Positions 1,414 to 57,363 of a stretch of DNA of 64,000 nucleotides are shown here, piece after piece. Below the pieces are notes generated by a model. That model saw nothing but the letters and a program-made list of their open reading frames with translations, made no database searches and was not told the origin of the DNA. The position numbers were made by a program, and so were the translations under genes. The stretch is from contig OZ024745.1 of assembly GCA_964016885.1 (NCBI GenBank), positions 108,004,001 through 108,068,000 of the forward strand. Reading direction: 5' to 3'. This DNA comes from Eledone cirrhosa. Its lineage: Eukaryota. The stretch's first letter is position 1. Every line of letters starts with the position of its first letter.

Positions 1414-3190
1414 TAGCTGTCCTACCTTTGTAGCAGTTGACAATGATGCTACTGCACCAATCTTTTGGTATGACACCTTCTAGTATTACCTGGTTAACAA
1501 TACGTGTGGTTATATGCCTTCAGCTTCTCGGCAGCTATACCCGATGGACCGGTTGCCTTCCCCATCTTCATATCTTTGATTGCCTTACTTACTACATTGC
1601 TGCTGACTTGTACTGCTGGCCCCTCTATAGGGTCTACTTGGGGTAGGGTCTCTTCTTCCCATGCATTCTCCTCATTTAGTAATCTATCATAATGACTCTT
1701 CCATGCATCTTTCTTCTCAGCACTTGTGAGGGCAAGCTCACCTTTATCATTCCGGATACACTTCTCTCCAATGACATCGCAACTCTCTCTGACACACTGC
1801 CTCGCAATCTTGAACACCTCCTGTTTCTGGTCCTCACATTGCAAAACATGCTTGAATTTTCTATCCTCTGCTTCCCTCCTAGCTAAGTATACTTGTCGCC
1901 TAGCTTCCCTCTTGGTCTCTATGTAATGTACCCTGCTCCCCCCATTCTTCCATTCTTTCCATGCCTGTCTCTTGGCCTTAACTGCCTCATCTACCTTATT
2001 GTTCCACCACCAAGTCACTCTCCTCCTGCTTGAGGTCTTACTCCAGCCACAGACCTCATCCGTCACCTCTAGTAAGTTATTTTTTAGGAACTCCCAGTTC
2101 TCTTCTACATTGAATGTCTCTATCTGTTCTTCTTTACTGTCGTAGGCGTTGAGTAAAATATCTTTAAATCTGTTACTGGTTTAGGGGTCTTTCAGCTTCC
2201 AGATCTTTCTTCTCCAGGTTGGCCCCCGTTTCCAGGTTTGTCTAGTTCTGACTGTGAGGTCGCTGACAACTAAGCTATGTTGGGATGTACATTCCTCACT
2301 AGGGAAGGCTTTTGTTTACGACCGTCCATCTGTCACGTCCTCTGATGAGGATAAAATCTATCTGACTAGAGTGCTCCTCTGATCTATAGGTGATCAGGTG
2401 GTTGTCGGGTTTTATAAAGTTTGTGTTACATATCGACATGTCATTGGCGTCGCAGAATTCTAGAAGTCTGAATCCTTCCTCATTTCTTGTGCCAACCCCA
2501 TGGCCTCCATGTACTCTATTGAAGCCGTCGCAGTGTTTACCTACATGTCCGTTAAAATCTCCTGTGATGATTAGGAAGTCATTGTCGTCTGTTAGAGCAG
2601 TAGTGTGCATTAGGGATTCGTAAAACCTATCCTTAAGTTCGTCTGGCAGCCCCGATTGGGGTGCGTAAGCTGATATTATTGTGGTAATTGTTTTATTCAG
2701 GACTAGTCTGAGTTTAATGATTCTTGCATTTACCCTGTACACTGAGATTACTTTATCTACCCACTTGTCAGCTAGTAGTATACCTACACCCATTTCCCAC
2801 CCAGAAAAATTTGTAGCACCGACTTTTTCCTACAAGGACTCTAGCAGACTCTCCTCTCCATCTAGTCTCTTGCACACAGCATACATCAATTTCCTTTCGC
2901 TCTAGCATTTCTACGATTTCTCCTACTCTTCCTTTCATTGAGCCTACATTGATGGTACCAACTCGGAGTTTTGGGCATTTGTCGACACTCGTAGGGAAGG
3001 GTCTCTGGATTGGCGCTTCACATGGGTGCTTGGTAGCTCGCAGATTCATATTTCATCTATTAATTCAGAGTTGCTCAAATTTATTCTCAGCTCATCCATC
3101 CATAACGGTAGGAAAATTGAGGGCTAGAAGAACAGTGGTGGTGGGATAATGGCTGGGTTTGTTGGGCTGGGACAGGGGAGGAGAGAGTTA
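1414..3190 (-). mobile_element. RTE-clade LINE, 5' half (APE endonuclease plus linker), frameshifted and 3'-truncated
   Basis: Minus ORFs 2768-3049 (GTINVGSM, CVQETRW), 2299-2793 (GDFNGHVG, SQIDFIL) and 1494-2066 (WWWNNKV, KATGPSGI). Confidence 0.9.
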
Positions 3191-7149: not shown

Positions 7150-7240
7150 AATACATTTGAACATTATTCTATGTACTATACATGCACCTTTGATGAGTTG
7201 TAGTGCACCTAAGCACTGTACACAATAATTTCATTATTAT
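7150..7240 (+). mobile_element. 5'-truncated 3' end of the CR1-type LINE family
   Basis: attattctatgtactata...gagttgtagtgcacct...tacacaataatttcattatt matches 57220-57297. Confidence 0.8.
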
Positions 7241-7464
7241 TTGTTTTTAATACAACACGTTGAATTGACGTTCTTTGAATGTGAAAAAAATGCTTTTAAA
7301 ACTTCGTTATCGCCCATTACGTTCGGAATTTAAATTGTGCAGGAATGTGAGGGGTATCAATAGAATAGTTAACGAATAAGATCAATTTAATATTCCTATA
7401 AGCAAGCTAAATATGAATTAAATTATAATAGAAGCATTATTAACTTAAATACGAGCTAATGAGG

Positions 7465-10269: not shown

Positions 10270-13200
10270 TCTATTTATTTGCCACCAGGGCATCAAAGTT
10301 TGGGACAAATACAAAGGGGAGAGTTTACATACATTTAAAAAGACGTGTAAAAAACATATAACAAATTAAATTTAACAATCGATGTCCTCAATAGGGAGAG
10401 GGCGTTGACGTGGGTCGCACACACCCTCGATAAAATGTGCAACCCTCCTCTTCAGGGGCACAAAGAGCGGGTGCTCCCTTCCTCTCCTCCGTCTTCTCCT
10501 CTCTCACCTACAGGCTGAGATAGAGAGAAGGCCCATTCACTCGGGCCATTCTCGCCACTTTCACCCATCTTTCATAAAACTTGCTGGAGTAGAGCACCTC
10601 TCTCTCCATTCTGATCCTTCTTCTAAAGTGGTACTTGAAAAAAAGGACCAGTTGTTGGCCGGAGAGAAAGGTGTCTGACCTCAGCCCTTTCAACCTCGTC
10701 CACCATACAACCTCTTTCGCCATAGCTATCACACAGAGGAAAACCGCCTCTCCTTCGTTTTTGAAAGGGGAGGCGGTTTGATCGTGACAATGTATTCGGT
10801 GGTCAACTGGATTGGTCCCACCCGCGACAGTAGTCGTTCCACATAGCCCCACAGGTCAGCAACGTCCGGGCAGTGTACGAATGCGTGTGCGACGGTTTCC
10901 TCGTCACACACGTATCTCGGACAGATCTTCTTCGAGGGGTCCCTACCCGGGCGCCCGTGTCTGTAGAGCTTGTCTCGAACGGGTAGAGCTCCTCGGTAGT
11001 ATTGCCAAGCCAGGAACTTTTGGAAGTTGTCCATCGGTCCCGGGCCAAACGTCCTACCGAACAGACTGGCTAGCTCGTCTTCGTCCATGCCCAGAGCCTC
11101 TCCGAGAGCGTCGTCGCACTTACTGCGCACCAACCCTCTATAGAATGTTGAGGTTGAGTCTCCACTGATTGCCGGATCCGCTTGCCAGAGGGCCGTGAGC
11201 GCCTGGGCACATTCAATGTGCCAGTCGCCCACTTTTCTCGGTCTTTGCTTGACCCAGGATTGCAGCTCGGTGAGTGAGACGAGTCTCGGAAAGGCTCGCC
11301 TCACAAACAGGGCCCACACCGGCTGACCGGTGAGGAATACCTGGAGGTGCCGTAGCCTTGTCTACGTATCGTCAGCCACGGCACCCCCAGCCCTCCGTTC
11401 GAAGGGTGCTGACAGCAGATGGATCTTCTCACCAAAGGAGTCCTCTTCTTCCAAAGGAATCGGAAGAGCGCGCGCTCCATTTTGGCGAGTGTTTTCTCTG
11501 GGCATGGCACGACGGTCAAGCGGTAGTAGATGACGGACGCTATATAAGCATTCGCCACCTCCGCTCGACCTTTCAGGGATAGTTTGCACTCGGCCCACTT
11601 CTGGGCGAGTGCAAACACCCTGCTCGTTACCTCGTCCCAGTTTTTCTCCACCTGGAGGTCCGGTCCGAACCAGACCCCGAGCAGCTTCACCGGTCCCTCC
11701 GTCCAGCGTCTGACGATGCCGTCGGAGGGCATCGGTTTTCCCCTCCACGTTCCGAGTTGCAAACCGACGGACTTGTCCCGGTTCAGCTTGGCTCCTGTAA
11801 ACCTTTCGTATTCCTCCAGTAAGGTGCCGATCTGCCCGATTTCCGAGGCGCACGACACCATTACTGTCACGTCATCGGCGTAGGCCGACACCGCTTTCCG
11901 CAATCCCGGTTCCAAGGGGATGCTCTGCAACAGCTCCAGCTTCCGCAGTAGTGGCTCGAGAGCCAGCACATACAGAAGGGAGGAGAGATGGCATCCCTGT
12001 CGGATGGATCGCGTGATTTGGAACGGCTCTGAGAGGTAGCCGTTCACCTTGACCTTCAAGCAGTTGTTGCTGCTGTGCATTGCAGCAATCCAGCCCTGAA
12101 AACGGGTCCGAAGCCTGCCGCCGCGAGCACCGCATCCAGGTACCGAAGGTCGACCCTATCGCACGCCTTAGATTGATCCAATTTGATCAGGGCCCCACCA
12201 AAGCCGGGTTCGTTCCCTACCCTCTCTATTGCATGAGGTGGAGGTTGTCGTATATGGACCTGGACGGGATTGCGCATGTCTGCGCTTCTCCCACCAGGTT
12301 CCCGACGACAAGCGCCAATCTCTTCGCTAACACCTTGGCCAAAATCTTTAACTCTGTGTTTAGCAGAGTTATGGGCCTGAAGTTATCTATGTCATCCCCC
12401 TTGTTCTCGTCCTTCCTCACCAGCGTGACTACGCCCTTGGTCACAGAACTTGGAATTCTCCCGTTCTGTTGCCAGTTTCAGTAGACCGCCTCGAGGAGAC
12501 CGGAGAACAAGTCTGGCATCGCTACATAAAGTTCGTATGGTAGACCATCGAGACCCGGAGATTTGCGTTTGCCGCATTGGCTCAGCGCTTCCCCTATTTC
12601 AGCGGCTGAAATCGGCCTTTCGCAGGACTTCGCCTCCCCGTCCGAGAATCGCGCCAGGCCGTCGAGGTGTGAACCGAAATCCATGGCCTCACCCGGCCCG
12701 CCGCCCCTCCCGAACAGTCGTACAAAGCGCCGTTGAAAAGCCGCGCTCATTCGCTCAGGTTCAAGGATCACGCATCCATCGTGGTCCTTCAAAGACCAAA
12801 TCGTGGACTTGTTTCCACTTTTTGCCTGTCACTCGGGCCCAGCTAACAGCTTTGGCTCCCTCGTTACCCAGAGCACGTATTTTACTCCTGACAACGCAGC
12901 CCTCATGCTTCGCGTCATAGAACTGGTCTAGGGCCGTTCTTGACGCCAGCACGCCGGCCACGTTGCCACTTCTAATCGCCTCTTCTACTCTATTTATTAA
13001 TTCCCTTTCAGTTCTATTTCTATCTGATGCTAATTCCTGACTAAAACCTATCGATTCTATTCTAATTTCTCTCTTGGGAGAGCCCCACCACCTGCTGTTG
13101 ACAATTGCCCCCGTCAACCGCTGCTTAACTAGAGTGCTAATCCGTTTACTGTAAGCTTTGTTTGTCGGTAAGGACAAGTTTAGCTTCTAGTAACCGGGTC

Positions 13201-30556: not shown

Positions 30557-32887
30557 TATTTAATTACATATTACAGTGGGTCCTCGATATACGGTAGTTC
30601 TTTATCTGGTAAATTCACAGATACAGTTTTTGGTCGTGTTTTGTTTATATTGTGCCGTAGCGTCACCTGTAGTAAGCAATAAATTCCCCCTTGAATTCGT
30701 GGAAACTGACTGCTATTCGAATTCTAGGAAAATTGTGTTACTACTGCTATCGTACTAACTGACCTTACCGAGAAACTGGCCAATCACTGGCGAGTTCAGA
30801 TATCGGTCGATGATGTCATAACTCTTAACTGATCACTTCAGTTCGGCAAACTAGCGTGTCCTCTCAGTGAGAGAATTTTTGCTGAACTGAAGTGATCAGT
30901 TAAGAGTTATGACGTCATTCAAAGTAAGAGAAAACCCGACGGCGTGTTTTTGGAGCATAATTATCACGGCATATCTTATAACCCTATATCTCATGGCCCC
31001 AAAACGTCCTGCGAATATTGCTGATGCAGATGGAAAGGCCAAACGCATGAGGAAGAGCCTAACTTTGGAGATAAAGCTGGACACTTTGAAAAGGAAGGAA
31101 CAGGGACAAGCTCCGTCCGACATAAGTCGTAACTTAGGCCTAGCCCAGTCTACAGTCTGGACTGTTTTAAAAAATAGTGAGGCTGTCAAAAAAGCTGGGG
31201 AGAATGCTACGAGTCTACAGAGTAAATTGTTGGCCAAACATCGTGAGCCGATTATGGATAGGATGGAAAGGTTGCTCAAAATTTGGATCGACGACCAAAA
31301 TCATCAAAATATGCCTCTGTTTTTAAATGTAATTAGTGAGAAAGCATTGTCCATTATTGACAGGCTCAAGACTGAAATGGGGGTGGAGAACTTTGTATTC
31401 AAGGCAAGCAAAGGCTGGTTTGATAAGTTCAAACGACGTTCGAGTCTTCACAACATAAAAGTTACAGGTGAGGCTGTCAGTTCCGACAAAGAAAGTGCTG
31501 AAAAATTCAAGACAGAGTTAGAGAAATGCATTGCAGAGAAGGGGTACAGCAAAAAACAGGTTATTAATTATGATGAAACAGGACTTTATTGGAAAAATAT
31601 GACCAGTAATACTTATATTGACAAGGAGGAGAAAAGTGCGAAGGGGTTCAAAGCCTCAAAGGACCGCGTTACTCTGTTACTTGGAGGGAATGCAGAAGGA
31701 GATTTAAAGCTAAAGCCACTCATTATCTCCCATTCTGAAACTCCAAGAGCACTCAAGGGGTTACTTAAGCAATACCTACCAGTAATATGGAAGTCTAATA
31801 AGAAGGCATGGCTGATCACTTCAATTCACCAGGAATTTTTCACTTCATATCTGTCACCAACCCTTAAGGAATATGCATTAGCTAACAACATTGCCAACCG
31901 TTTTCTGCTATTAGTGGACAACGCCCCCCAGCCACCCACGGGCAATGGAAGACTGGTCAGAAATTATTGAGGTTTTGTTTCTCCCCCCCCAAACACCACA
32001 GCTCTCATTCAGCCAATGGATCAAACAGTCATCAAAAAATTTAAGGCATACTACCAGCGGAGAACCATGCAGCAGCTGATAAAGGACACAGATGGACCTG
32101 ACAAGCCCACGATCAAGGAATGGTGGAAATTGTACATCAAGCACGGCTTAGACAACATCAAGGCATCTTGGGAAGAAGTGAAGCAGTCTACTATGAACTT
32201 CGCCTGGAAGAACGTGTGCGTGGCTTGGACATAAAAACTCTAAGAGAATGTCTCAGGAGCATCGAAACAATCTTAGAAACCTTGAAGGAGCATGACCCCA
32301 ACCCTGCTAGGAGCAGCAAAGTGGCTCAAGACGTCGACAAAAGTGTCAAGATTTACGAAGAAATGTATGAGGCCAAAAGAAACACCACTAAACAGTCCTC
32401 CATCTACTCTTTCTTCAAGCCAGTCACACCTGCCAACCGTGCTACAGCTGGCCCTTCAACATCCACTGCAGTCAACAAGTTTGTTGGTTTTGAGCCGCCC
32501 ACATCACCCTCATCCTCCCCTGTCAACTCAGTCCAAGATGAGTAAGGGCTGAAACCCATACGGTCCCTTCGCCTCGGGAGGGACAAATGAAGAGGCACAT
32601 CATCTGATGGACATCTATGTGTAAGGTACAGTAAATAAAAAAAAACATTATTTCTTTTCTGTAGGGATGACTTTTTCGATGTGCTGGAACGCATCCCTAC
32701 ATATTTCATGTTATAATGGGTTCTTTATACGGTGGGGGTTTCAGGAACGCATATATACCGTATATCGAGGACTCACTGTACATATGTTTCACTGTTGATC
32801 AGCTCAAGGAACAATCGATTAATGATCGATCCTGACTCTGGAATCAGAAGCTCCTCATATATGTGTTAACATGTAGACTCGCATCTA

Positions 32888-38900: not shown

Positions 38901-40242
38901 CTACTTTTAGATAAGATACTGAGAAAGCAATTTCTAAATAAGTTTATCTTCAAAGTGCATCTTCCATTCTGTTACATAATCAGAAGATATATTTGATCCC
39001 AATATTAACTATGAAGTTAACAAACAAAAATTAATAGGAATTTTTCTATATGAATATTTTGCATTACAACTATTATAGGAATTCTTTTCTTTGTATCTCT
39101 GTACTTCAACAATAAGAAGCATTTTAAGGCCATCTTCTGTTCTAAAGCAGAGGTTAGCCTTGCAGGCCTCATGACAAATGTTTTCACTTTTCCCTTATTA
39201 TCGATGATGCCCGTACCTCCTCCTCATAAACCTCCTGCATAGTTTTAGCTATGTCTTTTTTTGTCTTCCTTTTCGTCTACCTCTTTACACATTCATTTTC
39301 ATCATTCCTCTCACCCAGTCACTTTCATCCTTCCTCAACCCAACCCAACCAAGTCATTCCATTTTTCTTCACAACATCCATCGCTGGCTCTATTCCAATC
39401 TTCCTCTGCAGTTTATTGTTTGTCATCCTTTCCCTCAGCGATACTGCACTCTTCTACCAGACCATTCTCATTTCTGCTCTTTCCAACTTTTTCTGTTTCT
39501 TGCTCCCATAAGTCATGGCACTTCTCACACATGCAGCATGCGTCTTTCCCTTCAGTTTCAGTAACTTCTTCCAAGCACACCTCACTTTAGGTACTGTCAG
39601 AGGTTTCATTCAATTTATCTCCAAGGTAACAAAACGTTTTCACCTCTTCCTTCGTCACACTATTACCAAGAGTCATCTCAACATCCTCTCCATTTGTAGC
39701 TTCCTCCATATCCACTTTACACTGTACCTCTGCGTATCAATATATTTCAAATAACCCATAGCTTTCCTTGTATATGGCATGTTAAACAGAGCTGGGCTGT
39801 GTATCTACTTAATAAAAAAAGCAACATTAGAATAACAACTGTAAGAACAATTTCGATTTACTTCGCTTAATAAATTATAAAACTGCTTAACTTCAGTCAA
39901 TTCCAAGATTCTAGAACAGACATTAAAGTAAACTAATTAATCTATTACATTCAGGCATGGTTGTGAAGTTAAACATTTTATTTTGCAACTAATTGATTCC
40001 CTGACTTTGAGTTGTCAAAAGGCATAGGGAGCTGCTTGCAGTGGCTTGATGATGTCATCTCCAAAGAGCAACAGTTGGATAAGATGTTGCAATATTTCAT
40101 TATTATTATTGTTATTATTATTATTATATCATGACTATTATTATATACACTGTTCATTTTCCTGACATTTGTACATTATTCTATGTACTATACATGCACC
40201 TTTGATGAGTTGTAGTGCACCTGAGCACTGTACACAATAATT

Positions 40243-40273
<31 letters not shown>

Positions 40274-48700: not shown

Positions 48701-51700
48701 AGTACATTACTGGTACTTTATTTTATTGACCCCGTAAGGATGAAAGGCAAAGTCAACCTCGGCGGGATTTGAACTCAGATCGTAAAGGGACGTAACTATG
48801 CTAGAAAGCATGGCGTCCGGCCCTCTACCGATACTGCCAATTCACCGCCCTTACCTATATATAATAATATATAAAAATTAGCAAAGATTTCTTGATTTTA
48901 CATGTTGGAGAAAAATCTTTATTTCTTGGCACAGTTTGCATCTATTTTTTCCCTTAATCTAAATCATTTTTATGCAATTTTAAAATTCCAGTCATTTGAT
49001 GATTTTTTGGCTTTAATAAATATTTCTAAGTTTATTTTACCAACAAATTATTCTTCTTCACCCAATTATTCCAGAGAGGGTTGTGGGGCAAAGTACTCAA
49101 ACACTCCTTCCAGCGGGTCCCTAAGCGAGACCAGCTCAGCTCATGAATGTTATCCAACCATCTTGCTCGGGGTCTACCATCGAGTCTCCTGCCAGTTGGT
49201 TTTGCCTGTAAAATCTGTCCAGCAATTCTTTCCTGAGACATTCTAACCACATGGCCATAGCATCAGAGCTGTGAGCTCTCAAATCTGTCCAGCAATTCTT
49301 TCCTGAGACATTCTAACCACATGCCCGGAGTATCAGAGCTGTGAGCTCTCAAATCTGTCCAGCAATTCTTTCCTAAGACATTCTAACCACATGCCCATAG
49401 TATCAGAGCTGTGATCTATCAAATCCTCCACAATGTTTTCATTAACTCATTTAAAAATATTTCTAACAAAATACACTCTATATGTGTTCTAACGAATTTC
49501 ATAAATAATTAGGAATTTGGATGAGTTTAGAAAATAACTAACTTGTTCATAATTGATTTGGCGTCTGGGATCTAACGTATCTTTTTAGTTACTACATACA
49601 ATTATGCTAGAAGGTTATAATTCAAATCTAAATATTTTCAAAGTTTGATACTATAAACATTTGAATTAACAAAACTGTTTTTAGATATTTTTCTGCAACA
49701 TCATTACAGGATGTTAAGAGATAAAACATTAAGTAGTGTAATATATCTTTGCCTAGGATTTGAGCCTTGGTCTTTATTTGGTCAATATCTGTTCATTTAT
49801 TGATCTGTGTAGCTAACATGATTGCATTGATAGAAACATTAGTATTCTGCAGGTTCAATCACAATAAGATTTGGAAAGCTGCTCGCCAATACATTTGAGT
49901 CTAGTTTAGACTAATATCCTTTTCCCAACATGAATATCTCTGATCTCAACTGCCTATTTGCAATTTCAGTTTAGGTCAGTGGTTCCCAACCTTTTGTGCA
50001 CCATGCCCCGCCTCAACATTTCAAAAATTGTTACTGCCCCCATCCCCCAAATATTTTTTTTAATGAAAACAGCAATGATCAACTGTAAAGTGTAAACCAA
50101 TTGGTGTATAGGTAGTCTTCTTGGTTGTCCATCGTAAACAATGATGACATCCACAGGTGGCTGTGGAGGCCAATCCTTGACTTGCAGGTCCGGGGACAGT
50201 GGGGGCAGGGGAAGAGACCGGAGTCGCTTCGGGCAGCTGCTGATGCCTTTCTCCTCCTTTCACGGGCCTCAGTGACCTCTGCCTGTCTCTTCTCTTCAAA
50301 AGAGTCTTTGGCGCGTCTGATAAGGGCTCGCCACTCAGTCCTGTCCTGAGCATGGGACACGAGTTGTTTTGGTGCGATTCCAGTGTTGTTCGATTCCAGT
50401 CCTTGAACCTCTTGAGAGGCCTGCCCCGCTTTCGTTTCCCCGAACAGAGTTCCCCATACATCAGTTGCTTCGGAAGCCTGTATAGGTAGTACCAGATGCG
50501 CAATAACATGTATGGAGGTGGTGAGGCATGAATTTCTGATAGTAATGTGTACTAAAGTTGCCTTGTGTAAAAGTAACAAGGTAAAATCTGAAGTTTGTTC
50601 TCATTAACATCATTTTCAAATTGCCTCTTTAAATATTCAAACTGTTCCCCTTGTGGGGCATGCATTCCATGTTGGGAATCACTGGTTTAGACATATATTT
50701 AGCCATAGCTAAAAAAAAAAAAAAAACAGTAGCTGCAAATAGACATCTGCCATCACTCACTACAATATTTCCTACCTTGACAAACTTATGAAACTGTTCA
50801 ATCTTTGAGTGGGCTGCAATTAATTTGCTCTGGGTGTTGGTGATTGTGGCTTCACTCTGGGCTGCTATCTCTACAATGTGTTTCTGAGCAGATTTCTCCA
50901 GTTCAGCTATAACAGCTTGCATCTTCTCATACTGCTGCATACTGTATTCATGCTGTTGATTCTGTGGATAACAATAACAACAGTGTAAATTACATAAAGT
51001 ATTCATTTTGTATATGTCTAAATCAGAGGAGGAAGGAAAGAACACACTTGATAATTGTTAGTGTTCCCAGGACTCCTGGGAAGAAGGGAGGAAATTATCT
51101 ACAGACAGGAGACTTGAACATTTACAATAAAGTGGACTATTCTAATGTATGGGACAGGTGGTGATGTTATATTTAGGTGACAGATTAAGTTTACTCGTAA
51201 AGTATATGCTACTTCAGTTTCATGAAAGGTAAGAAAATAAAAAGTTATGGTATAGCATACACAAGACAAACATCTTAAACTGCATCTGAAAAAAAAAGCT
51301 ATTTGACATACTGACAAAATCTCAACCACAGGCTTATTGATATCCTGTTTCTTCTATAATAATATAAATCTTTCCTATAGATATTGGCTTACAGAAGTCC
51401 AAACTGAACATCTACCACATCAATCTCTCCAGTATGGGAGGGCCTACAAAATTCTTATATGACTTTTATCATTAAAAATAAAATTACAAACTTTAAATTT
51501 TGGCTTAAATCTAAATTAAAACATAAATTTAGAATTTTAAGGGGAAAATATTGATATTTGCAAAATTATAAGGCTTTGTACTGTTGTTATCTGGTTTAGA
51601 ATAGGCACCTCAAATTCCTACATGTTGTAAAAGACAACTAAAAGGGTTGGTAACAGGAAAGGCATCCAGCTATAAAACATTGTCTCAAAAAGGATACTTT

Positions 51701-54700
51701 GATAAATATGCAGCCTGCCATGGGGCCTGCAAGGCTAACTCCTGCTATCCCATGGAAAAAAGGCATTAAAGCACATATTAACTGTTGAAACCTCAGAATA
51801 GAGCAAAATACAGTGGAAACTGAGAATTAGTGAACCAACATTTACTGTTGCTTTCCATCCTCCTCCTTTGCCCACTTATTCCTGAGGGGGGGGGGGGTCA
51901 TAGGGGCAGAGTCTTCAAATACTCCTTTCCAGCAGGTACTGTCAGAAGCAACTGTCTCCAATTGATCTGGTTGGATCCTCAAGTGAGACCAGCTGAGCCT
52001 GAGCCTATTGTTTCCAATATTTGACAAAACCTTCATGATATAAATATTCCATAACTACTATCAACAATTAAAGATGATTAAATAACTGTTTCTACTTTAG
52101 GCACAAGGCCAGCAATTACCCAGTACATTACTGGTACTTTATTTTATCAATAACTCGTCAAACTTACAATTGTGATACAGAAGGAAAGTTTTACCTTTTT
52201 TTGTAAAATGCGAGTAAGGCTCTTATGTTTTCTTTCTAAGTCTTCTTTTCTTTTGGTCATAGCTAACAGTTTCTGATGCTCAATATCCGTCTAGGTAAAA
52301 ATAAACAATCAATGATATAATAAAGATGGCGACAAGGAAGGTCGCTTGACCACGTCTTGACCAAACAAAATATAATATTTTCACCAAAAACTGCCCTTTA
52401 AACACATGTCAGATGGATTACAATATTCATTATTACAATTACTTTCACTGTTCCCTAACAACTAGTACCAGTTTCAAGATAGAATTATCTTAACGAAGTA
52501 TATATAATTTCACTTGATTTTCGCCAACGAACCACGTGTGGACATGGACGGGGAAAAAAGGAAAAAAAACAAAACAAATCACTACGTCCCTTAAGGATCG
52601 CAGTAAGTACTCCACAAAACATATAAACAACAATATACACACAGATTTATATACAGATACATACCATATGCATATACACACACGTGAAAAGAAACCACAC
52701 TATTGCGTGTGAGACACTATACCGGCCAATTTTACCAATTTACATTGGTAAAATATTTCTTAACATTGACCTCGCTTCTAACCCACATACACCTTTTAAT
52801 TATATATATATATACTAGCAGCTGAAAGTTAATAATTTGAAAAAAAAAAAAAAAAAAAAAAATATTATTGAAAGTTTACTATAAAGAAGCAGTATCAGGG
52901 GAAAAAAAAAAAACAAAAAAAAAAAAAAACGTTATTCGCTGTTAATAAACAACTGCCTTCTACAGTACGTTTCATTTAACTTTCGCAGCATATTTATTTG
53001 TTTACATGCACAGACTCTTCTACACACACACAACATTTAGGAAAACGGAAACAAAATACACAAAAAAAACAGACATTTTATTTCTATCGTAATCAAGTGC
53101 GCTAAACCTATATTGTTTACATTCTGTGTTTTTCTACGGATGGGTAGAAATAACAAAATTGCCATGGTGATGTCCATCGATGAAATTTGCGACAAAACTG
53201 GTCGATGTCCAAAAATAGAACATTGCCCGGAAGATCACACCTGCCATATCTGTACGGAACCCGAAAACTCGTTCCGTAATCGCTGGGTCGAATGTGGAAC
53301 CTGTCGCATCTCTGTCTGCCTTCAATGCGCCACAGGCTTCCGGAAGATCCCAGGCCAAAATAAGAAACATCACATTGCTACGATGGATAGACTCTGGGAG
53401 ATGGTCCAGCTAACAAACTGGTCCTTTCAGTGCCTGGGCTGTATGCCTGCTTCTCCCATTACTGCGGAACAACAACAAAGACCGAAGATCGTGTCTTCTA
53501 CCATTGTTCCTGAACAACAACAACAAAAACCGAGGATCGTGTCTTCCTCTACCATTGTCGCTGAACAACAGCAAAAACCAACGACCGTAGCTTCTGCTAC
53601 TACCCCCGTTGAAGGACTTCATCAACAACAGCAACCCATGTCTTCCTCACCCGTTACTTTTCAACAACAACAACCGACGACTGTGTCTTCTACCATTCCT
53701 GTTGAAGGAGAAGAACAACAACAAAAACCGACCGTCAATACGGAGTTTGAGGAAATACGGCAAATGATTTCCGCTTTAAGTCAAGAAATAGCGGAAATAA
53801 AATCAAGCGTTCGTGTAGAACCCCACAATGAGGGATCTTACCGGAGTGCCTTGTTAAAAAATCTCCGCGTACCTCATGTTGAACCTAGACGCATTGAGAA
53901 TGCCACTGAAACTGCAAACCACGAAGTGATTGCCATCGGTGTGCCGGAAGACATAGTTGATCTTCAGGCATTTGCTACCAGTTCATCCAAAGACCTGGGC
54001 TGTGCTCCCGCAAAGGGTGCTCTACGCCTTGGCCGACCAGGCCCGAAACCCAGGTTAATTAGACTGTCGTTTTCAAACTCGGCTGAGGCACGTTCATACC
54101 TTCTAGCCTCTGATAAAGCTAGGCGTGAAAGTCGGATTGCTTTCCGAACACGTCCTGGTCTTCCACCTGATGTCCGCCCAAAGTTGCGTGCTGCAGCTTC
54201 CCTAAACCGCAGCTCGGCAGAACATGAAAGCTTCAGCCTACGAGATGATGGGCAGATATGGAGGTTTGTTAAGGCTGGCGAATCATGGAAAAGAGACACC
54301 AGCTGGTCTGAAAACAGTGTACCCACAACAACTGACAATAAAGAAACTGAAAAAACTCTGGGAAACTAAATCAGAACAACCTGCCATCCCCTGCACATAA
54401 TCATAGACTGGAATCAAAGTACAAACTGTTGTCCTTGAATGCACGTAGTCTATGCAATAAGATTCATCTTTTTGACTCCTACGTCAAAAGTATCAACCCG
54501 GACTTCATTACAGTCACGGAAACTTGGGCACATCCCTTACTCTGTGATGGGGTTTTCAGCATGACTGGCTACAACCTGTTTCGTAAAGACCGTATTAATC
54601 GTCGTGGTGGTGGTGTAATGGTCTACGTTCGGTCAAATCTGTCGGCAATTCCTTGTGCTGATTTGAACCAATCACAGCAGGAAGTTTTTTTCTGCGATAT

Positions 54701-57363
54701 ACGTATGACCATGTCAACACTGCTACTTGGAGTCGTTTACCGTCCCCCAAATTACTATCAGGACACTCAACTTTGTGATATCCTCAGAGCTGCTGCCAGG
54801 AAGACAGCCACTTATGTTTTCATTGCAGGTGACTTCAATCACCCTGAGATTGACTGGGAGACCTTTCGTTGGCCGCCAAGTGCAGATGACTTCCTTGAGC
54901 TGGTGCTGGACTCGAGTTGGTCCCAGGTGGTCACCTCCCCAACGAGAGGTGACAACACTTTGGACCTACTCTTCACCACTACTCCTGAAACGGTCATTAG
55001 TGTTACTGCTGAGGAACCTTTAGGTGACTCTGATCATGCTATGATCATTGCCAATCTATCCCTCATGGGCAGTAACAAGAACCACAACCATCTCCAAACT
55101 GCTCACTTTGACTGGAATAGAGCAGACTGGAACTGTTACTGCACCGAGTTGCAACGGCCAAACTGGCTTGAGTTCTATGACTCTGGAGATGTCAACACTG
55201 TACTCCAGAACATCCTGAGCTCAATATGGACAGCATGTGCAGCATCGGTGCCACGTAAGCGGAAAAAACATCCTAAAAGCGCAATTTGGGAGACTGCAGC
55301 AGTCCGTCTTGCCAGAAAAGAACGGCGCAATGCTGAACGTGAGTACAAACTTCACAAATCAGACATTAATAGGAAGAGGCGAAATAGATCGTCCAACCAC
55401 CTCAAACAGGTGACAAAAAAGGCAGTGCTTCAATTTGAGCAGCGCATAGCAACCAGCCCTGACAGTAAGGTGTTCTGGAAGTATGTTCACTCAAAGCAGA
55501 GGCCTCACTCTCCAGTTGGTCCTCTTCGCAATCCCCACACAAGCCAGGTTACTGACGACCCCAAGGAATGCGCAGAGCTCATTGCTGAATGCTATGCAGG
55601 CATTTTCACCATTGAAGACCAGAGTGTACCATCTCCACCACCTATGACACCGGACTCTATTACAACCATGGAATTTACACCTGCAATGCTGCGACGTCAC
55701 CTAAAAAATAAACGCAACCATGCCTCTCCTGGTCTTGATGGTGTTACGTACCTGCTTCTTAAACGTGGTGGGTACTTCCTTCTACGCCAGTTATCACGCT
55801 TCTTCCAATTCTGTCTGAACAACAGTGCTACTCCAGAACAGTGGAAAACTGCCAGTGTAATTCCTCTGTTCAAAAAGGGTGACCGCACATCACCTGTGAA
55901 CTATCGTCCAGTCAGTCTTACTAGTTGCATCGCCAAACTGATGGAATCCTGTGTCAGAGAAACACTTTGGAACTTCTGGAGCTCTCACAGTCTTATCCGG
56001 CCTTCGCAATTTGGATTTATCCCCAACTCCAGCTGCTGTGATCAACTTATAGAGTTTCTTGAGGACATCACCCGGATCACTGATGGCGGCTCATGGGTGG
56101 ATGTTGTTTACCTTGACTTTGCGAAGGCCTTCAATTCTGTGCCGCACAAAAGGCTTATGGCAAAACTCTCTGCAATGGGTGTGAAGGATGATCTTTTTAA
56201 CTGGTTGAAGTCCTTCATTCTCAGTCGAAGAGAGGTAGTCACGGTTCTGGGACAGCATTCCTCACCATATGAGATGTCATCTGGTGTACCTCAGGGATCT
56301 GTTCTTGGCCCCCTTTTGTTTGTGGCATATATTAATGACATAGATGCCAACTTAAGGAATGCCACAGTACTAAAGTACGCAGACGACATCAAGCTGTACC
56401 TTGAGATAAAAAGGACAGATCCTGAACACTATAGATCTTGCTTGCAGTCTGACCTGGACACAATGCAACAGTGGATCTCAGACTGGCAACTCAAGCTAGC
56501 TGTGGACAAGTGCACCACCATGCATTTTGGGAGTAAAAACCCAGCGTCCACATACTCCCTCCACAGCACTAATATCAAGAAGTCTTCCTGTGAACGTGAC
56601 CTGGGCATTACGGTCAGCAGCGATTTGCGTTGGACGAGGCACGTCTCTAAAATTGTCAAGAGGGCCGAGGGTGTCTTAGCATCACTCAGCAAGACCTTTG
56701 TCAGCCGCTCTCCAGATATCTATTTAAGGCTGTATACAGCTATGGTGCGACCACACTTAGAATTTGCATCACCAGTCTGGAACCCCTATCTTGCTCAGGA
56801 CATTGACCGCCTGGAAACTGTTCAGAGACGTGCAACCAAGCGAATACCCTCCATCAGGCATCTACCATACTCTGATCGCCTTGCTTCCCTGGGCATGGAT
56901 TCATTGAAGCTCCGACGCCTGGCAACTGACTTGGTAAACACCCACAAAATTGTTAACCATGTTGCCAACAACAACCCTGAGTGCCTTTTCGATTTCCATG
57001 TGTCTAACACACGTGGACATGCCCACAAAGTAAGAAAACAGCACAGTTCCCATGACTTTCGGAAACATTTTTTCACGCTCAGAGTTGCTGAAGCATGGAA
57101 CAAACTACCTGCATCAGTTGTTAGCTGTCGAGACGCTGCATCCTTTAAGGCCTCCATGCTTCCCGAGATCCGCCAACACTACAGCTAACACATACAAACA
57201 TGTACTTCCCTGGCATTTGTGTATTATTCTATGTACTATATTGACGAGTTGTAGTGCACCTGAGCACTTTACACAATAATTTCATTATTATTATTATATT
57301 GTAGATAATTGATTACGATAGTCAACGTTGGGATAATAGTGATGACAATGATGCTGATGATGG

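Follow-up and report, generated by a model that had tools for sequence, protein, structure and literature searches.

The window, i.e., the whole 64-kb stretch of DNA that we analyzed, contains one full LINE copy with both open reading frames unbroken, located at approximately 53.0-57.3 kb (Table 1). The encoded ORF1 protein consists of a Cys-rich, PHD-like N-terminus followed by a Q/S/T-rich linker that carries an internal duplication, a coiled coil, an RRM and a C-terminal domain. A model of the C-terminal 211 aa (pLDDT 88) has human L1 ORF1p as its top structural match (E 2.5e-6), and on this model the RRM and C-terminal domain have the L1-type ORF1p fold, with the end of the tail predicted to be disordered (pLDDT <50). 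The PHD finger is putative, being suggested by matches in atlas clusters and in 4 of 82 homologues. Four of the six proteins found in our first search for ORF1 homologues are from Octopus vulgaris, which makes an octopus the probable host. A domain search of ORF2 identified RVT_1 (E 7e-38) and Exo_endo_phos (E 6e-14), and reported no RNase H family (E 0.1) and no protease. CR1-clade LINEs have 3′ ends formed by a short tandem repeat, and this element has such an end, together with an N-terminal APE and a central RT without RNase H in ORF2 and an L1-type RRM in ORF1. We therefore class it as a CR1-like LINE, a label that is based on architecture and motifs rather than on the tree, which consists of unnamed endonuclease rows. 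Our search for a target-site duplication found none that was convincing, with matches of 7-mers only. Two short matches to the 3′ end of the element elsewhere in the window are candidates for truncated copies, or for a SINE with a common tail, and four other ORFs in the window resemble, by eye, parts of retrotransposons or a transposase of the pogo/Tigger type.

Table 1. The LINE copy, its ORF1-ORF2 junction and other features noted in the window.
Feature	Position	Strand	Remarks
ORF1	53140..54369	+	409 aa from ATG 53140; stop-to-stop 53041-54369
Duplication in ORF1 Q-rich linker	53443-53533 and 53638-53731		74% identity between the two parts
ORF2	54351..57188	+	stop-to-stop, 945 aa; -1 frame relative to ORF1; APE endonuclease and reverse transcriptase
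Slippery heptamer G GGA AAC	54360..54366	+	in ORF1 register, X XXY YYZ
ORF1 stop TAA	54367..54369	+	directly 3′ of the heptamer
First in-frame ORF2 ATG	54561..54563	+	downstream of the LNARSL and VTETW endonuclease motifs
3′ UTR	57189..57297	+	ends in an (ATT)n tail, ~57284-57297
Short match to element 3′ end	7154-7241		83%
Short match to element 3′ end	40158-40258		85%
Other ORF	1497-2829	-	
Other ORF	10732-12155	-	
Other ORF	30891-31967	+	
Other ORF	50063-50551	-	

Our examination of the junction between the two ORFs confirmed an earlier note on this DNA, which had described ORF1 as ending in G GGA AAC TAA and ORF2 as lying in the -1 frame, opening ahead of this site and overlapping it. The last codons of ORF1 are ACT CTG GGA AAC TAA, the overlap between ORF1 and ORF2 is 19 nt, and ORF2 opens 9 nt ahead of the heptamer. 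A TGA immediately ahead of 54351 closes the -1 frame, so that a shift is possible only in the last five codons of ORF1. Elsewhere in ORF1, in-register canonical heptamers are present at 2 of 439 other positions. A second sequence of this kind, A AAA AAC at 54350-54356, was rejected as a shift site since it is out of the ORF1 register. The location of the first ORF2 ATG downstream of the endonuclease motifs, also described in the earlier note, holds as well: a start at this codon would drop LNARS and ETW, and all other ATGs between 54300 and 54570 (54439, 54452 and 54547) are out of the ORF2 frame, leaving ORF2 with no usable ATG.

The identification of G GGA AAC as an X XXY YYZ slippery sequence agrees with the available text of two papers (PMC5009743, PMC3542737), the first of which counts G_GGA_AAC with the heptamers on which mammalian ribosomes shift most readily, and the second of which gives the consensus -1 signal as X_XXY_YYZ plus a stimulatory RNA structure, with GGA as XXX being a documented exception. 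Three features of a frameshift signal were found in our analysis, i.e., an in-register X XXY YYZ, a -1 frame that is open into a conserved ORF lacking a start, and conservation beyond what the protein needs. The further feature, a stem-loop or pseudoknot 5-9 nt downstream, is not present in the window element among the local folds and simple pseudoknots examined: folding 3′ of the heptamer gave z scores of +0.81, -0.25 and -0.95 in three segments, a further folding score 3′ of the site was z +1.75, and a search of this region for simple H-type pseudoknots identified none, in line with the impression in the earlier note that there is no strong downstream pseudoknot. The stimulator is the weak point of the frameshift reading, since the consensus signal includes a 3′ structure and none was found in the window element. 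We therefore do not claim a classical two-part frameshift signal, and propose that the site would work like a retroviral -1 site, with the adjoining TAA as a possible pause site stimulating slippage.

The earlier note suggested checking whether relatives conserve the heptamer and the -1 overlap, and this was borne out in the copies present in sequencing runs, in the ORF1 family, and in distant LINEs. Contigs from 4 of 11 listed sequencing runs (1996, 103, 14 and 10 contigs) were aligned on positions 53700-55300, and these copies were compared at the level of indels and register rather than by the heptamer bases copy by copy. Seven indels are listed among the copies at a threshold of 10%, with none at the ORF1-ORF2 junction, and run X5, which is from a second organism, contains two gapless contigs across the junction, one differing at 12 of 506 bases and the other at 57 of 352. 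The -1 register is therefore not a lesion of the copy in the window.

Our comparison of DNA in the close family covers two elements, the second being the closest relative with DNA available (L001), which has 59% endonuclease identity (among the best 80 of 325 relatives) and codes for a protein of the P0004 cluster. GN is the C-terminal dipeptide of the ORF1 proteins P0001 (55% identity) and P0004 (44%), with the residues ahead of it diverged. The junction of L001, read by hand as its ORF1 contains an internal frameshift, and left out of the cluster counts below, is CA G GGA AAC TAG with ORF2 in the -1 frame. Pairwise alignment of the two elements shows a 9-base identical island, GGGAAACTA, with diverged flanks. 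L001 also contains an ATG two codons ahead of its NARS motif, which counts against the frameshift reading. A hairpin (z -3.3) is located directly 3′ of its heptamer (L001:1293-1352), and is absent in the window element.

A profile search with ORF1 identified 135 homologues (representatives at 50% identity), 109 with a recognisable tail and 26 without. The tails contain GN in 78 cases, EN in 16, KN in 6 and none of these in 9, and the GN dipeptide occurs 80 times in the 109 tails where 13.1 occurrences are expected. The residue ahead of GN or EN is never one without a G-ending codon (0 of 94, with a background of 19%; p 2e-9); D and N are never found ahead of GN or EN, and the residues ahead of GN are mostly S, Q, A, T and P. 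The site is located between 0 and 25 residues from the C-terminus of ORF1. GN or EN combined with this rule for the preceding residue is the protein trace that G GGA AAC or G GAA AAC predicts, and suggests a constraint at the level of bases. Alignment of ORF1 against viral contigs gave 44 pattern matches, none of which was confirmed.

For more distant relatives, we aligned the endonuclease against metagenome contigs and used the best 80 of 325 relatives, which have 30-59% identity. An ORF1 could be called in 62 of these 80 loci, leaving out one with a cut endonuclease (L060) and 17 with no called ORF1, L001 being one of these, and clustering at 60% endonuclease identity gave 41 clusters, with clustering at 50% or 90% giving the same picture. 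ORF2 is in the -1 frame in 32 of the 41 clusters, in the same frame in 6 and in the +1 frame in 3 (p 6e-9, this and the p values that follow being optimistic since the clusters are mutually related). A strict in-register heptamer is present inside the overlap in 20 of the 32 -1 clusters, where 2.7 are expected from ORF1 bodies, and the heptamer sites in overlaps are distributed as 21 in register and 3 and 1 in the other two registers. With a relaxed pattern allowing GGA as XXX, added after the data were seen, 28 of the 32 contain a site, so that -1 clusters without a site number 12 (strict) or 4 (relaxed). In a synonymous test restricted to dipeptides that can encode a site, the site is formed in 21 of 94 cases in overlaps, compared with 22 of 455 cases in ORF1 bodies (p 5e-7). 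In the G GAA AAC clades and in some A AAA AAC clades, EN or KN lies inside a conserved stretch of ORF1, which makes selection on the protein a confound.

The position of the site and the scarcity of start codons are further properties of these loci. In overlaps of at least 60 nt, the site is located in the first quarter, near the opening of the -1 frame, in 6 of 9 (strict) or 12 of 18 (relaxed). An ATG between the site and the endonuclease is present in 7 of 28, where approximately 19 are expected on an assumed 2.2% Met, the Met frequency measured for the endonuclease being 1.6% and that for ORF1 2.4%. Five loci have overlaps of 350-500 nt with the heptamer near the 5′ end (L005, L041, L055, L061 and L070), for which a fusion would leave out the C-terminal part of ORF1. 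On the tree, GGGAAAC, TTTAAAC, TTTTTTA, AAAAAAC and GGAAAAC swap between and within clades while the arrangement stays constant, with U UUA AAC followed by a stop present in five metagenomic loci (L004, L010, L013, L015 and L023). Folding downstream of the site in 28 relatives was not stronger than in a control window (mean z -0.51 and -0.11, respectively; Wilcoxon p 0.40), with z below -2 in 4 of the 28 downstream windows and in none of the control windows. A separate collection contributed three loci, one of them uninformative (L083) and the other two both fitting the pattern, i.e., T TTT TTA GGA TAG with ORF2 in -1 (L082) and TGA CTC in the same frame (L081). All three are LINE contigs within prokaryotic MAGs (Methanosarcinales, Dysgonomonas), and are probably eukaryotic contamination of these MAGs.

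Loci where ORF2 is in the same frame as ORF1 show a different junction. After dropping L011, L045 and L080, three broken copies that belong to -1 or +1 families, seven same-frame loci remain, all with TGA as the stop. TGA-CT is present in 6 of 7, compared with 1 of 48 ORF1 stops in -1 loci and 1 of 32 ORF2 stops. The same-frame loci with a single TGA followed by CT (L019, L052, L062, L068, L071, L078 and L081) occupy several places in the tree, and continue as CTC, CTG or CTT, never CTA. The available text of PMC3542737 describes UGAC as a leaky stop context, and on sequence we consider these TGA-CT junctions to be candidates for stop-codon readthrough. ORF2 is in the +1 frame in four loci (L058, L064, L066 and L074), which form one clade with L080. 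Their ORF1 ends in LNPxAxxF and has TTT-C at 3-4 codons from the stop, which fits a UUU_C +1 shift site or, alternatively, a PABP-binding PAM2-like motif. One of the four (L064) has TAATG just after the ORF1 stop. A +1 shift site of the form UUU_CGN is described in the part of PMC5052127 available to us.

Junction conservation in relatives is, on these sequence counts, far beyond chance, and supports the gag-pol-like reading of the two ORFs put forward in the earlier note. We consider it very probable that the element uses low-level programmed -1 frameshifting to make a predicted ORF1-ORF2 fusion. Ribosomes would initiate at the ORF1 ATG at 53140, and most would terminate at TAA 54367, releasing the RNA-binding ORF1 protein. 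A few would slip -1 on G GGA AAC, with the tRNAs on GGA and AAC re-pairing with GGG and AAA, probably during a pause at the adjoining stop, and would enter ORF2 at the codon 54366-54368. The product would be an ORF1-endonuclease-RT fusion of ~1349 aa, like retroviral Gag-Pol, and presumably one that stays whole. Such a frameshift would set a high ratio of ORF1 to ORF2 and could tether the enzyme to its own RNP. The efficiency of the shift is presumably low, which would suit the small need for ORF2p described in the available text of PMC3894237.

The main rival to frameshifting is termination-reinitiation as in L1 and SART1, with ribosomes restarting at a non-AUG codon (CTG at 54381, 54408 or 54426, or TTG at 54429 or 54435), free ORF2p as the product, and an incidental heptamer. 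Near-cognate codons are present in the ORF2 frame, no local stimulatory structure was found in the window element, and L1 ORF2 translation is reportedly AUG-independent. The statement in the earlier note that LINE ORF2 is usually ascribed to reinitiation agrees with a review, whose available text has ORF2 of SART1 and human L1 needing ORF1 translation, via reinitiation or by recruiting another ribosome (PMC2881922). However, reinitiation predicts neither the -1 bias (32/41) nor the in-register heptamers (21/3/1), neither the rule of G-ending codons (0/94) nor the TGA-CT at same-frame junctions; it explains no register-specific signal, and we regard it as unlikely.

We give still less credence to the possibility that the C-terminal GN of ORF1 is conserved as a protein motif (for binding, deamidation or cleavage), with the match in DNA being secondary and ORF2 reached by some other route, e.g., an IRES. 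The S, Q, A, T and P ahead of GN could reflect a preference for small residues, and IRES-like initiation of ORF2 has been proposed, according to the text available of PMC3894237. Set against this are the predicted disorder of the ORF1 tail, the varying distance from motif to C-terminus, the absence of D and N ahead of GN or EN, and the alternatives EN and KN being themselves dipeptides that a shift site can encode; the synonymous test (21/94 and 22/455) favours a nucleotide site. Least probable of all is a joining of the frames in RNA by splicing or transcriptional slippage with no ribosomal shift needed, for which there are short G and A runs at the site, but none of 7 listed joints has GT..AG ends (a weak point, as the contigs are not on record as RNA), and a dependence on register, as these sites show, points to a ribosomal process.

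The frameshifting that we propose resembles that of retroviral gag-pol, RNA viruses and PEG10, the last of which uses the heptamer G GGA AAC, in having an in-register X XXY YYZ, an upstream structural RNA-binding protein and a downstream polymerase in -1. The window element differs from these in being a non-LTR element, with no 3′ stem-loop or pseudoknot found and no protease seen that would process the fusion. Several LINE relatives carry T TTT TTA GG, similar to the HIV site, where in the source available to us the 3′ GGG matters. Human L1 and SART1 share with this element a bicistronic LINE RNA and the L1-type ORF1p fold, and their ORF2 depends on ORF1 translation. The SART1 ORFs are joined by a stop-start UAAUG, according to the available text of PMC3894237, and L1 and SART1 are both thought to give free ORF2p, whereas the window element has no AUG, overlapping frames and a predicted fusion.

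For the gag-pol-like expression that the earlier note proposed in a non-LTR element, a correction is required: -1 frameshifting in a non-LTR element has a precedent in TRE5-A and TRE3-A of Dictyostelium, for which the accessible text of a review states that a -1 frameshift is required for ORF2, in a statement that names no heptamer or assay (PMC5911963). These L1-clade APE LINEs likewise have two ORFs, an APE-RT ORF2 and a -1 frameshift, but belong to another clade and host kingdom and contain a zinc finger in their ORF2. Virus-like recoding that controls ORF2p is also described in the same LINE group, i.e., the 2A/StopGo sequences of CR1, L2, Crack and Rex1 LINEs, although these, in the text available, are mostly in elements without ORF1 and split proteins rather than fuse them (PMC3708506). 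No 2A-like motif was identified in the ORF2 leads of the window element or of 79 checked loci. Frameshifting within HeT-A gag is noted in the available text of PMC5009743, and the portions available of PMC4700185, PMC5006619 and PMC10294476 contain nothing on LINE ORF2 frameshifting. In the literature searched there was no report of frameshifting into a CR1-like ORF2, and CR1 descriptions of the 1990s or Repbase notes may mention an overlap or a frameshift.

How LINE ORF2 is translated is treated as an open question in the available text of PMC3894237, which discusses reinitiation, IRES and 2A and in which frameshifting is not mentioned; a conserved shift site makes this question directly testable. 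A fused ORF1-ORF2 protein, as predicted here, could account for cis preference and stoichiometry in simple physical terms, and the frameshift reading would alter the annotation and engineering of CR1-like ORF2 proteins. It would also add natural shift sites made up of a heptamer plus a stop, apparently without a 3′ structure. We think it rather likely that much of the CR1-like LINE radiation produces its endonuclease-RT as a Gag-Pol-like ORF1-ORF2 fusion, and that lineages switched repeatedly between -1 shifting, for which several heptamers serve, readthrough of UGA-CU and perhaps a +1 shift at UUU-C, in many cases without RNA structure. If the CR1-like radiation does use such fusions, the reinitiation model of L1 would not be general for LINEs.
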